From Rickettsiales bacterium (lineage in GTDB: Bacteria > Pseudomonadota > Alphaproteobacteria > Rickettsiales > UBA1997): 58,922 nt of DNA. Positions 22,099-25,668 of this stretch are shown in pieces. The notes beneath the pieces were generated by a model. It made no database searches. It worked only from the letters and a program-made list of their open reading frames with translations, and was not told where the DNA came from. A program made the position numbers and the translations under genes. The DNA is taken from contig JAITSP010000026.1 of the NCBI GenBank assembly GCA_031287725.1, positions 1-58,922 on the forward strand, in the 5' to 3' direction. Each line of letters starts with the position of its first letter. The stretch's first letter is position 1.

Positions 22099-25000
22099 GT
22101 GAAAAAAGTTTTAGTCCGATTTTTTATCCTTCTGGCCATCCTGGCGGTGGGGGAACGGCCCCACTCGGATTCCAGAGCTGCCAACATAGGCATTTCCATC
22201 GGCAAGAGAAATAAGGGAAAACTCGCCCTGAGCAATGAGGAGATAATAGGTGCCAAGAGAAATGGCATAGTGGCCGCTATCTGCTACGTGACGGACATCA
22301 TCACCGGCAAGGTGGCCAGAGCCATAATCGCAGTGGCCGTATTCGCCGTCGGCTGGATGTTCATTCTAGGGGGAGTTAAGTGGACAACCATATTCATGTT
22401 TACTATAGCCTGCTCTCTGACCTTCGGAGGTGCCGAGCTGGCCCACATAATAAGCCGTAACAACTACTCCTGCAGATCTCTGGAGGAGGCCGAGGAGATT
22501 TCAAAGAGCATTGTCTACAATGAGGGCCTGTGCAGTCTGAACAGCGCGAAGGAGTACGCCCCAGGTCAGGTGTGGTACCTGTGCCTGGGCTCAAATGACT
22601 CTGAGTGCAGAACTAAAGTGACCAGTAACACATACATTGACGAGTCCGCGGCCAGAAGCATTGTAGCTCTGGTCACATGCCAGGCGGGATTTTTTAAATT
22701 TGACGAAACCAAACTCCATAAGGAAAAGTGCAACAAAGATAAGAGTAACGTAGGCTACTTCAGTGTCTCCGACGACCAGGAGGACGCCAAATGTAAAAAG
22801 GGCTGTCTCCGCTCCGACCTTCAGAAATTCTACGACAGCTACAATCTCAAGCCCGCTAGAGATTCTGTCGGTGACATCCTCATCCTGCCAAATGACAGTG
22901 CCAAGTATGGCCGGACCGAGGGTGTCTACTATGTCCAGGGAACAATTCTGGACATGGACTGCAAAGATGGCTTCGTAGAGTTCAATGACAAAGATGTGGC
23001 GGACAGCAAAGCAGCCAAACTCACCTGTTCGGACGGAGGCAGCTTCAAAATAGATGGGAACTGTAAGAGAAGATGCGCCCTAGATAAATTCAACAACTAT
23101 GCCGTCGTTTCCGGCTGGCAGCGCTGTGACGCTGACACCAACAACTGCAAAAGTAACGGCAGTGATCTGGTCTTCGGCTACGGCGAAACGGCAAAAATCA
23201 CTGGCTGTGCCAGTGGCCACCTCATGATTGAGAGCACAAACCCAATGGTCATATCCTGTGACAGCTCGGGGTTCTGGAAGAAGGTCCGGGGCCAGGGCTG
23301 CACAAAAGCCTGCAGGCTAGACGCTCTGGAGCTGAGAGGAGACTCCGGCTGGAAGTCCTGCAGCGGTAGCACATGCTCTGGCACCATTTCCAACGGCAAG
23401 GTAGAATTCAAGGACGGAGAGGCGGTAGCCGTCTCTGGCTCATGCAAGCCGGGCTACAGTGTGAACACCTCCGGCAGCTCTCTGCTGAAGTACAGCTGCC
23501 TAGCCGATGGCAGCTGGCAGGAGGACAACGGTACGCGCTGCTTTGCCGACTGCAAGCTCGGTGATAAAGACAACATGCTGAAGGGTGAAGAGAATACAAC
23601 CACCTGGGCTCTCTACAGCCAGACCACGCAAACCTACAGTAGCACAGTAACTGCCACGAATACGCTCAAAAATGGAGAAAAAATAAGACCAAAGGTCTGC
23701 AAGACGGGCTACAACGTCGATGCCGATGGCTCCATAGTCTATCTCTGCGATAAAGGTAAATTCTCCGTGGTAGGTGGAAATGTCAGCGAATACTGCAGGC
23801 AGGGTTGCAAATTTGAGAATCTGGATGCGCTAGTCTTCAATGACATATCCTATAGCACCGAAAAGACCATAAAAGAGTGGGTGGCCTGTGCGACGGACGG
23901 CAGTGGCGGAGGCTGCGTCGACATTAAAACAAGTACCCAGAAGGGGGAGGCTGACCGGGAAATCATAGACATGACCAAGACTGCCGATACCGGAAGATAC
24001 GCATTCCTAGATTCCTACTATCGCATAGAGAAGTGCGATGAGCGATACGAAAAATTCTCCGAGGACCACACGCTGGCTGTAAGATGTTCCGAGGGGGGCC
24101 GCTGGGTCATTGACTCAAATGACTGGAACGCCTGTCGGCTAATTCCAAAGTGCTATGAATTTTCTACAGGAACTAGTGCCAGGAAGATAGATCTGACCAG
24201 CGCCGATGAAAGAATAGACAATATCCGGCTGCAGCTCTGGGGAGCCTCGGGCGGTACGGCCTGCAATAACTCCTCGCCGAACAGAGGTGGCTACAGCGAG
24301 GGTACACTGAAGATATCCAGCAGCAGGGTCTTCTATGTGACCGTGGGGGGAAAGGGAACAAGTTCGACCTGTGGGATTGGCAGCGGAGGAGCTGGAGGAT
24401 TCAATGGTGGCGGAGATGGAGGTTCCAGCACTACCACGAACACCGACACGGGCCCCACTGGACCCGGAGGAGGGGGCGGCGGAGCCACGGATCTGCGTCT
24501 GACAAATGTTGGCCTCAGCGACCGGGTAGCTGTGGCCGGCGGTGGCGGCGGAACCTCGGGAAGATTAGTAGATAGCTCTGGTGGTGGCGGTGGAGGTACT
24601 CCGGGGAGTAGCAACAGCGACTCTGTCTATGGCTCGGGAGGAGGCACAGGGTCGGCCGGGGGACAGCCTGGAACGAGCATAAACTATGCCCGCTTCGCTA
24701 GCCAGGGCATTCTTGGCCAGGGTGGCCACGGCGCGGGCTTCAAGGATAGCCTCTGGTACGGCGCTGGCGGCGGAGGTGGAGGCTACTATGGTGGTGGCGG
24801 AGCCATCACCGGCACCGCCGGCGGAGGTTCTGGCTACATAAATACGACCTATATGGAGACCGGCAGCGGCCAGACAAGTACCAACAGCCCGGGCCCTGAC
24901 GATGGCTTTGCCCGAATCTGCTGGGGAGACTGGTATAGACAGACAAATCCCTGCAGCCAGCCAATCTACTCAAAATATGAGAGCGACTCGAACAAAACCC

Positions 25001-25668
25001 CCTGTGAGAAGGGTGACGAGATCTTCCCAAATGTGTCACTGCCCACGGCCAATAGGTGCTCCCGGGCGTCCCTCATAGATCTACTGCAGAATAAAAACAG
25101 TGTGGTCCCTAGTGATGCTAGCACTAGACTTCCAGCCTACTACAGCGAGGGCATGAAGGTGCACCAGGCCTGTTCCGAAGGCTACACCGTAGAGGGTGGA
25201 GAGGTGGGAATGATGGTCTACCAGTGCAACAGCAACTCAACCTGGACTGTGGCCAATGGCGACTGCAAGCCAAATTCCTGTGACAATGCCAAAGCACTCA
25301 CTGTCAGCTCAACGAACGTTGACTACCACATAGTTGTCCCTGCGGGAGAGACAGAGTCCGGCAAAGACAAAATATTCGAATGTGCCAGTGGCTACAGTGG
25401 CAGCCTGACCCAGTCCTGCTCCCTGGGTGTCTGGAGCTACGCCAGTGGCGTCTGCTATAAGAACTGCGGAGATGTCACCGCGGTGGTCGAAGGAGGCACA
25501 TGGGACTACGGTCAGGATAACCCAAAGGCACATAACTCCAAGGCCACCCTGAAGTGTGAAAATGGCCTCAATGGTGCGGCCAGAGAGTACACCTGCAACG
25601 ACGGCAGCTGGAGCAACGGACAAAATGCTTCCACTACGTGCGTAAAAGTAAAACCTGCCCCTCCCTGA
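22099..25668 (+). CDS. large secreted/membrane protein: VirB2/TrbC pilin-like N-terminus, about 8 Sushi/CCP-like Cys modules, and an ALK/LTK-type glycine-rich domain
   Basis: 1189-aa ORF with a GTG start. It begins with a signal peptide, then a two-helix hairpin 'IVAAICYVTDIITGKVARAIIAVAVFAVGWMFILGGVKWTTIFMFTIACSLTFGGAELAHII'. Repeated modules follow, such as 'SCKPGYSVNTSGSSLLKYSCLADGSWQEDNGTRC'. The Gly-rich block is 'LQLWGASGG...VTVGGKGT...GGFNGGGDGG...GGGGGGATDLRL...RVAVAGGGGG'. Confidence 0.85.
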   Translation: MKKVLVRFFILLAILAVGERPHSDSRAANIGISIGKRNKGKLALSNEEIIGAKRNGIVAAICYVTDIITGKVARAIIAVAVFAVGWMFILGGVKWTTIFMFTIACSLTFGGAELAHIISRNNYSCRSLEEAEEISKSIVYNEGLCSLNSAKEYAPGQVWYLCLGSNDSECRTKVTSNTYIDESAARSIVALVTCQAGFFKFDETKLHKEKCNKDKSNVGYFSVSDDQEDAKCKKGCLRSDLQKFYDSYNLKPARDSVGDILILPNDSAKYGRTEGVYYVQGTILDMDCKDGFVEFNDKDVADSKAAKLTCSDGGSFKIDGNCKRRCALDKFNNYAVVSGWQRCDADTNNCKSNGSDLVFGYGETAKITGCASGHLMIESTNPMVISCDSSGFWKKVRGQGCTKACRLDALELRGDSGWKSCSGSTCSGTISNGKVEFKDGEAVAVSGSCKPGYSVNTSGSSLLKYSCLADGSWQEDNGTRCFADCKLGDKDNMLKGEENTTTWALYSQTTQTYSSTVTATNTLKNGEKIRPKVCKTGYNVDADGSIVYLCDKGKFSVVGGNVSEYCRQGCKFENLDALVFNDISYSTEKTIKEWVACATDGSGGGCVDIKTSTQKGEADREIIDMTKTADTGRYAFLDSYYRIEKCDERYEKFSEDHTLAVRCSEGGRWVIDSNDWNACRLIPKCYEFSTGTSARKIDLTSADERIDNIRLQLWGASGGTACNNSSPNRGGYSEGTLKISSSRVFYVTVGGKGTSSTCGIGSGGAGGFNGGGDGGSSTTTNTDTGPTGPGGGGGGATDLRLTNVGLSDRVAVAGGGGGTSGRLVDSSGGGGGGTPGSSNSDSVYGSGGGTGSAGGQPGTSINYARFASQGILGQGGHGAGFKDSLWYGAGGGGGGYYGGGGAITGTAGGGSGYINTTYMETGSGQTSTNSPGPDDGFARICWGDWYRQTNPCSQPIYSKYESDSNKTPCEKGDEIFPNVSLPTANRCSRASLIDLLQNKNSVVPSDASTRLPAYYSEGMKVHQACSEGYTVEGGEVGMMVYQCNSNSTWTVANGDCKPNSCDNAKALTVSSTNVDYHIVVPAGETESGKDKIFECASGYSGSLTQSCSLGVWSYASGVCYKNCGDVTAVVEGGTWDYGQDNPKAHNSKATLKCENGLNGAAREYTCNDGSWSNGQNASTTCVKVKPAPP

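Follow-up and report, generated by a model that had tools for sequence, protein, structure and literature searches.

A Rickettsiales-labelled gene family that joins a VirB2/TrbC-type pilin module to a large CCP-like and glycine-rich ectodomain

The stretch of DNA analysed here, referred to as the window, is the 58,922 nucleotide contig JAITSP010000026.1 from the metagenome-assembled genome (MAG) of a Rickettsiales bacterium. One of its genes encodes a protein of 1189 amino acids (aa) in which a Sec-signal peptide is followed by a complete pilin unit of the VirB2/TrbC family, the pilin family of type IV secretion systems (T4SSs), and then by a Cys-rich ectodomain of about 1,060 residues. That the N-terminal module is a VirB2/TrbC-family pilin homolog is well supported by profile comparisons. 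T4SS pilins are regarded as uniformly small, with the recognition of hosts or recipients credited to VirB5 and other adhesins. The fusion is one member of a family from animal-gut MAGs labelled Rickettsiales, for which no prior description was found. It is tentatively proposed that it acts as a pilin displaying its own adhesin.

The pilin module and its natural end

A preliminary description of this DNA, made from the sequence and its open reading frames (ORFs), had noted an uninterrupted 1189-codon frame with a signal peptide and a hydrophobic hairpin, and had named TrbC, Sushi and the ALK/LTK glycine-rich domain (GRD) as the families concerned. All of these points have held. The frame opens with a GTG start and its 1189 codons are uninterrupted (Table 1). 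The translation is identical to the NCBI entry LBU15_01305, which is annotated as a 'hypothetical protein' of a Rickettsiales bacterium MAG. In a hydropathy analysis with a 19-residue window, residues 1-19 are signal-like and residues 64-95 form a strongly hydrophobic hairpin, the second helix of which extends to about residue 118. The ALK/LTK GRD, Sushi and TrbC families all score in Pfam on the whole protein; an NCBIfam scan of the protein gave no match. The linker between the signal peptide and residue 43 is poorly conserved, and residues 1-43 are only 16% identical to the ortholog.

The Pfam TrbC (PF04956) match covers residues 55-116. It scores 26.7 bits with the whole protein, slightly below the 27.9-bit gathering cutoff, and 31.0 bits, above the cutoff, with the N-terminal 134 residues alone. 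The module of the ortholog P0002 scores 27.9 bits, and a 1772 aa family member from the mouse gut scores 34.9 bits as a whole protein, across positions 5-98 of the 98 in the profile. An exhaustive HMMER search of 1.84 billion representative proteins with a two-sequence module profile (A1; E ≤ 0.001) returned 87 matches, of which 85 are TrbC by Pfam. The module profile therefore retrieves essentially VirB2/TrbC proteins only. Some of the partial or shorter relatives carry the NCBI or JGI labels 'TrbC/VirB2 family protein' or 'VirB2 component (pilin)'. In a word-index homolog search, the 90 aa module found no proteins and a 25-sequence alignment found just 3.

A clade profile of 37 modules, with that of the window as the first (A6), was searched against 177,635 PDB sequences. 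The only matches were VirB2 of A. tumefaciens (8cue and 8fai, E 1.7e-6; 8exh, E 2.2e-6) and 9vf4_c, a 'TrbC/VIRB2 family protein' (E 0.007). It is the broader A6 alone that is significant, since VirB2 was at E 4-8 or absent with the narrow profiles A2 and A5. In the alignment of A6 with VirB2, the FG motif and the conserved glycines line up, and the Lys of the loop consensus lies on VirB2 Arg91, which faces the lumen and is required for T-pilus formation (10.1101/2022.04.28.489814).

The predicted fold agrees. The module has short helices at residues 46-53 and 56-68, a GGVKW loop between the two transmembrane (TM) helices, TM1 and TM2, and a conserved tail, ISRNNYSC. In an AlphaFold2 (AF2) model of residues 40-204, made with a 25-sequence alignment (predicted local distance difference test, pLDDT, 75.5), TM1 and TM2 are separated by a four-residue loop. 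When this model was compared by Foldseek with 350,542 PDB chains, the Agrobacterium T-pilus VirB2 took ranks 1, 2 and 4, with a target-normalised TM-score of about 0.6 and a root-mean-square deviation of about 3 Å. The E values, at about 1, are non-significant with a hairpin this short, and the match of the model to the T-pilus is taken as corroboration, not proof. Taken together, the Pfam score of the isolated module, the 85 TrbC proteins among the 87 matches, the PDB matches confined to VirB2/TrbC and the T-pilus fold bear out the pilin homology suggested in the preliminary description.

The fusion and the established VirB2/TrbC pilins (A. tumefaciens VirB2, RP4 TrbC and RvhB2) share the signal peptide, the short-looped hydrophobic hairpin, a Cys located in the helix that precedes TM1, the Gly and FG motifs and the same predicted fold. 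A positive charge in the loop joining two hydrophobic helices, after a signal peptide, is a mark of TrbC/VirB2 proteins that is found here. Their small stand-alone size is not: known precursors of about 100-150 aa yield mature pilins of 70-80 aa, whereas the 1189 aa fusion adds a folded ectodomain of 1,063 aa past the natural end. The fusion also differs in having a second invariant Cys, at the end of the pilin.

Of the 87 relatives, more than 90% have Cys62 and more than 90% have Cys125, two cysteines of the module, and both are invariant within the fusion subfamily. About 20 relatives, either stand-alone or N-terminally extended, end no more than 6 residues from the Cys aligned to Cys125, for example with the C-terminal sequences ...GKNFLC and ...GKQFRC. 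The window protein therefore holds a complete pilin and its ectodomain, the 1,063 residues that follow, begins at the natural C-terminus. Cys62 and Cys125 share one end of the hairpin, the periplasmic one. It is possible that a disulfide between them ties the hairpin ends together, which would be reminiscent of the ring closure long discussed for VirB2/TrbC. Cys62 was considered as the exact counterpart of VirB2 Cys64, which was rejected, as the hidden Markov model (HMM) alignment puts Cys62 three residues upstream. The 139 aa P0005 was likewise rejected as a stand-alone short form, being partial at a contig end.

The pilin module is the best-conserved region of the protein in all seven pairwise comparisons made, with 46-78% identity versus 26-43% in the Cys-rich core that follows it. 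For the GRD, identity is 35-54% in the four comparisons of the seven where it is fully aligned. A generic membrane anchor would be expected to rank with the least conserved regions of a protein, with its hydrophobicity kept and not its sequence. The conservation of the module therefore indicates specific protein contacts, whether between pilins or of the pilin with VirB6, VirB3 or VirB4, and would argue against a generic membrane anchor.

The ectodomain and the fusion family

There are 53 Cys residues in the window protein, 50 of which are beyond residue 125. Following a short helix, the core of the ectodomain has about six modules resembling the complement control protein (CCP) or Sushi domain. 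C-x3-C junctions, the usual abutment of CCP modules, are found at residues 232/236, 322/326, 401/405, 481/485 and 566/570, and C..G.W motifs are present. At 75-110 aa these modules are longer than canonical CCP and some have six Cys, with a third disulfide. No Pfam family matched the core, the Sushi HMM included. An AF2 model of residues 126-690, made with 17 homologs, is all-β (pLDDT 85.3), and a Foldseek search of the PDB with the core model found multi-CCP proteins only, with 59 matches at E ≤ 0.001, including β2-glycoprotein I (E 3e-10), factor H, CR2, CD55, CD46, FXIII-B and PAPP-A. Their low global TM-scores are expected because strings of beads are flexible. On the basis of this model, the core is made of CCP-like modules.

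The region from residue 691 to 935 is 31% Gly and contains the GRD. Pfam Sushi (PF00084) matches are confined to the C-terminal 250 or so residues, where three stretches are matched (E 8.9e-11, 42.5 bits versus a cutoff of 20.7), the best being 1010-1056. A single-sequence search of the PDB with the C-terminal half, residues 685-1189, gave no match. The preliminary description had counted at least eight Sushi-like modules of 55-60 aa with four Cys each. Their CCP-like nature stands, but the size and Cys number do not apply to the core, and the count is better given as about six CCP-like modules in the core, based on the C-x3-C junctions, and three canonical ones at the C-terminus.

A CCP fold arranged as beads on a string is shared with eukaryotic proteins such as β2-glycoprotein I, factor H, CD55 and CD46, and the GRD (PF12810) is shared with the ALK/LTK receptor. 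The fusion is bacterial and anchored by a pilin hairpin, while the eukaryotic counterparts use a type I TM helix or a glycosylphosphatidylinositol anchor. The GRD of the fusion was found without the kinase, TNF-like or EGF-like parts that accompany it in ALK. A possible tie of PF12810 to parabasalid (Trichomonas) proteins was dropped, as a literature search on it yielded nothing of use. The list of eukaryote-like domains in host-associated bacteria is extended by the CCP and the ALK-type GRD.

The closest homolog, P0002, is a 1884 aa protein from another Rickettsiales MAG. It is 45% identical, has the same three Pfam families and is encoded directly downstream of the same 195 aa Flavodoxin_2 gene that precedes the fusion in the window. 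The gene of a third ortholog, P0003, likewise has a Flavodoxin_2 gene before it, which at that locus is called as 254 aa. In a BLAST comparison with the matches from the exhaustive search, about 20 clusters (50% identity) are colinear from approximately residue 44 to 680, including the core, and these come from NCBI, JGI, ENA and Logan assemblies and from different hosts. The junction between pilin and ectodomain is conserved residue by residue, as ...FGG.ELANIISGNNYSC....IYN.G.C....GQ.W..C. One member, the 1949 aa P0007, is split at L002 10001-15847, in one ENA assembly, into P0088 (1283 aa) and P0090 (642 aa). The split is far downstream of the pilin junction and the gene is intact in other samples. 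Its cause is a sequencing error or else a pseudogenising mutation.

The genomes of GTDB species representatives were scanned with a profile of 6 sequences, identifying five loci, all in MAGs labelled Rickettsiales or Alphaproteobacteria. The members include Gsp477, Ncb351, MGBC110556 of a mouse catalogue (the 1772 aa protein) and RGIG8782 from water-deer colon (722 aa). The isolate names suggest a gut origin for the family MAGs, with Gsp477 and Ncb351 taken as termite-type; by these names, the uncultured Rickettsiales-like bacteria that carry the fusion family live in the guts of termites, mice and ruminants.

What is conserved across the family is the pilin module plus about 560 Cys-rich residues. 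The GRD and Sushi repeats are a C-terminal add-on found in a subset, consisting of the colinear P0001 (the window protein), P0002, P0007, P0011 and P0012 and the mouse-gut protein (GRD at E 1.6e-46, and Sushi). Over the 87 members, Pfam finds the GRD in 8 and Sushi in 12.

The preliminary description knew of no other example of this architecture. It is true that no prior description was found, with no published link of VirB2 to Sushi/CCP or glycine-rich domains among the top-ranked results of a search over about 8 million full-text papers. However, the window protein is not alone, since at least about 20 clusters, defined at 50% identity, make up its family. The family has gone unnoticed because its members are annotated only as 'hypothetical' or as partial TrbC/VirB2.

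Related pilin modules are found in other architectures. Nine of the matches (Table 1) are poly-pilins of 365-578 aa, with 3-7 tandem TrbC/VirB2 modules in a single ORF. We know of no description of such tandem-pilin polyproteins. One of them, P0017, is on a soil-metagenome contig with genes for a TrwC relaxase, a DUF736 protein, an H-NS-like protein and a TIR protein, and this contig looks like a mobile element. In a second group, from the same clade, the order is reversed: an N-terminal domain of about 100-790 aa, Cys-rich or coiled, comes first, and the pilin module at the C-terminus stops at the conserved Cys. This arrangement fits with both hairpin ends being in one compartment. Lastly, there are giant Asn/Lys-rich proteins with one internal pilin module and extensions on both sides: P0028 and P0029 (about 2,400-2,500 aa, module at approximately 506-590), P0037 (2,149 aa), P0048 (1,996 aa, module at 1291-1367) and P0033. 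These are probably from AT-rich genomes, and some of the giant proteins weakly resemble the Sushi region of the window protein.

Genomic context and possible roles

The reading preferred here, which is put at somewhat less than an even chance, is that the fusion is a decorated minor or tip pilin showing its own adhesin. Following Sec insertion, the hairpin would lie in the inner membrane with both of its ends periplasmic. If so, as in VirB2 biology, the ectodomain would also be periplasmic and its roughly 50 Cys could be oxidised there, with Cys62 and Cys125 stapling the two ends of the hairpin. The conserved pilin module would be recognised by an rvh-type T4SS machinery in the same way as any VirB2. 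The fusion would then enter the pilus as one of its minor subunits, the most plausible place being the layer that is assembled first and would become the distal tip. Its thin, beads-on-a-string ectodomain may be extruded in front of the pilus or beside it, to serve as an inbuilt adhesin or a host-mimicking ligand, and may supply the role that VirB5 has in other T4SSs and that is missing in the Rickettsiales.

In the current model, growth of the pilus takes place at its base, on VirB6, and a VirB5 pentamer is pushed out as the tip (PMC9259494). VirB5 is absent from the Rickettsiales (PMC2653234). The hallmarks of rvh systems are duplicated RvhB4, RvhB8 and RvhB9, multicopy RvhB6 and no VirB5 (PMC11077975). 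In a 2025 cryo-electron tomography study of Wolbachia these systems were found to make pili, and the assembly and function of these pili without VirB5 were described as unresolved (10.1101/2025.08.29.673095). A place as a minor or tip subunit is favoured because a pilus with an ectodomain of about 115 kDa on each subunit could not get through the outer-membrane core complex. A more specific version, in which the fusion forms the first, distal pentameric layer of an rvh-type pilus and gives it a eukaryote-like (CCP and ALK-GRD) adhesive tip, is rather doubtful.

The likeness to the VirB5/TraC/CagL minor pilins and tip adhesins is in the proposed role only, that of contacting the target cell at the pilus. 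VirB5 is a soluble helical protein and the fusion has a membrane hairpin, making this a functional analogy and not family membership; no Pfam match of the VirB5 family was found in the window protein at E values up to 10. A core T4SS protein with a very large C-terminal extension has been described in the same order, this being the 4,322 aa VirB6-4 of Anaplasma (PMC7648143). The VirB6 paralogs are channel or stalk proteins, not pilins, and their extensions are seemingly not CCP or GRD. The giant VirB6 extensions may be seen as the nearest precedent in spirit.

Several observations weigh against the reading as a decorated minor or tip pilin. The homology of the module to pilins is seen at the profile level only: a single-sequence search of the PDB with the module gave chance matches such as PsaB, and tblastn of the module against 72,556 plasmids gave nothing significant. 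The loop Lys of the window protein itself (in GGVKW) is two positions after the column of VirB2 Arg91. The placement in the Rickettsiales is an NCBI label. A disulfide-bonded pilin ectodomain of about 115 kDa is without precedent, and the minor or tip subunit is a conjecture that sidesteps the steric problem posed by the core complex. Furthermore, no T4SS gene was found in the 58.9 kb window when its 36 ORFs with 150 aa or more were scanned with Pfam, as the preliminary description had said, and the loci of the other fusion-family members are without T4SS genes too, with the exception of a virD4 at one locus (L010).

The missing T4SS neighbours weigh little for three reasons. Firstly, isolated virB2 genes are normal in the Rickettsiales. 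In Rickettsia the vir genes are dispersed over five islets, one of which is virB2 by itself (PMC2653234, Fig. 9), and like the fusion gene it stands alone among housekeeping genes. Secondly, the canonical-sized pilins found with the same profile (P0061, P0043 and P0052) are also isolated amid housekeeping genes. Thirdly, in the water-deer colon MAG that holds L010 a gene for the VirD4 coupling protein (E 3.6e-134) is 5.7 kb upstream of the family member, hence at least that genome has T4SS machinery. A scan of metagenomes with this VirD4 found aquatic relatives only, at about 50-63% identity, and none in the sample of the closest orthologs. The surroundings of the fusion gene in the window are an ordinary chromosome, with genes for ribosomal proteins, EF-G, PNPase, DnaJ, PBP, FeoB, transketolase and NrdD. 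In a six-frame search of the window with two pilin HMMs, no pilin-like ORF was found other than the fusion.

A pilin-derived anchor had been offered in the preliminary description beside the self-adhesive pilin, and both remain the leading readings. Here the VirB2 hairpin would have been co-opted as a two-helix inner-membrane anchor that neither engages a T4SS nor polymerises into a pilus, and the CCP/GRD ectodomain would act in the periplasm or envelope or surface by another route. The lack of adjoining T4SS genes, in the window and at the other family loci, and an ectodomain seemingly too bulky for incorporation into a pilus would both fit this. The module is also found with N-terminal extensions, inside proteins of 2,000-2,500 aa and in tandem arrays, thus it behaves as a reusable building block. 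Against an anchor, the module is the best-conserved part of the protein and retains the pilin-specific Gly, FG, loop-Lys and terminal-Cys features, missing synteny counts for little where isolated pilin genes are the norm, and nine CCP modules and a GRD, if extended, would by estimate measure about 40 nm and exceed the width of the periplasm. On balance an anchor is considered unlikely, and the conservation of the module favours the self-adhesive pilin without proving it.

In RP4 TrbC, 27 + 4 residues are lost from the C-terminus before cyclisation. Cleavage of the fusion at or just after Cys125, releasing a normal-sized pilin and a soluble CCP/GRD protein, would be an extreme form of this trimming. 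The stand-alone relatives terminate at the Cys aligned to Cys125, conservation is high in the IS(G/R)NNYSC motif at the junction, and VirB2/TrbC pilins are known to be processed at both termini in a species-specific manner (PMC2653234). Yet the junction and the first Cys module are conserved as one continuous stretch with no linker, a helix starts at residue 125 in the AF2 model and no candidate protease, for example of the TraF type, was seen close to the gene. In addition, a freed ectodomain would still require a route across the outer membrane, and for a major pilin it would be expensive to make a 1,060 aa partner with each subunit. A precursor of this kind is considered improbable.

It is extremely improbable that a short pilin gene was misjoined to a downstream gene by misassembly or frameshift, the error named in the preliminary description as a possible refutation: the window is a MAG contig and one relative is split into two ORFs in one sample, but an assembly join is excluded by the unbroken pilin-to-CCP junction of the approximately 20 colinear clusters from independent samples, its conservation at the residue level and the synteny of the orthologous loci.

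If the fusion does form the distal layer of an rvh-type pilus, it would be the first T4SS pilin that is its own adhesin and would provide host contact independent of VirB5. More widely, an unrecognised class of 'decorated' T4SS pilins would take in VirB2 modules that are arranged in tandem or carry an ectodomain at one end or the other. The family may show how T4SSs that are without the usual tip adhesin contact their hosts, and it makes the question of the VirB5-less pilus in the Rickettsiales testable.

Features and other genes of the window

Table 1. Positions of the fusion gene, its parts and its upstream neighbour in the window, with related pilins of other architectures
Feature	Position	Strand	Basis
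Whole gene, 1189 aa pilin-ectodomain fusion	22099..25668	+	ORF list; identical to database entry P0001
Signal peptide, residues 1 to ~19-27 (approximate cleavage site)	22099..22179	+	Hydropathy segment, residues 1-19
TrbC/VirB2 pilin module, complete, residues 44-125	22228..22473	+	Pfam, AF2, clade profile against PDB, exhaustive search
Cys62, in the helix preceding TM1	22282..22284	+	Alignments A2, A3 and A6; HMM alignment to 8cue/8exh
Helix 2/TM1, residues 71-90	22309-22368	+	AF2
Helix 3/TM2, residues 95-118	22381-22452	+	AF2
Cys125	22471..22473	+	C-terminal ends of relatives
Cys-rich core, residues 126-685: short helix, then about six CCP/Sushi-like modules	22474..24153	+	Cys pattern, AF2, Foldseek
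ALK/LTK-type GRD, residues 711-926	24229..24876	+	PF12810, E 3.8e-27, 96.3 bits against a cutoff of 24.5
Three canonical four-Cys Sushi/CCP repeats, residues 987-1056, 1061-1119 and 1123-1181	25057..25641	+	Pfam, Cys positions
Flavodoxin_2/FMN reductase gene, upstream neighbour	21487..22074	+	Pfam; 24 nt before the start codon of the fusion
Poly-pilins P0017, P0019, P0030, P0036, P0039, P0041, P0044, P0056, P0064	P0017 at L013 8001-9500		Exhaustive-search matches
N-terminally extended pilins P0043, P0046, P0053, P0060, P0065, P0071, P0073, P0074, P0077, P0078, P0084			
Further N-terminally extended pilins P0026, P0031, P0034, P0040, P0045, P0050, P0054			

The flavodoxin gene and the fusion gene may be co-transcribed. 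A scan for promoters and terminators around the fusion gene gave nothing beyond the shuffled expectation. The ORF directly 3' of the fusion, at 26282-27394 (+), opens with a hydrophobic segment, maybe a signal sequence, and has no Pfam family. Other ORFs without a Pfam family are present at 17641-19236 (+), 35506-36852 (+) and 42158-43234 (+), these four encoding 358-531 aa.

The G+C content of the window is about 50%, which is high for the Rickettsiales. An anaerobic ribonucleoside-triphosphate reductase, NrdD, is encoded at 55994-58114 (-) (E 1.4e-172). This suggests an anaerobic lifestyle, which is unusual for classical Rickettsiales and is consistent with a gut habitat. For the MAG of the window, only the names of its relatives and this enzyme suggest a termite gut.

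At 50217-51524 (-) there is a gene for a 435 aa protein with a C-terminal Barstar (barnase inhibitor) domain at residues 307-389; its N-terminal 300 or so residues have no Pfam match. At L010, two genes downstream of the family member, a 196 aa protein that matches the eukaryotic DOT1 histone methyltransferase family (E 2.1e-8) is encoded at 14042-14632 (+), and on the basis of this match it may be a eukaryote-like effector. In the window, three tandem paralogs of 526, 551 and 588 aa are located at 10896-16387 (-). They are kinase-like, matching the C-terminal lobe of the eukaryotic-type Pkinase domain only (positions ~160-258). Their E values lie between 8e-10 and 4e-6, and just one of them reaches the gathering cutoff. 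These paralogs could be an expanded kinase-like family, possibly of effectors.

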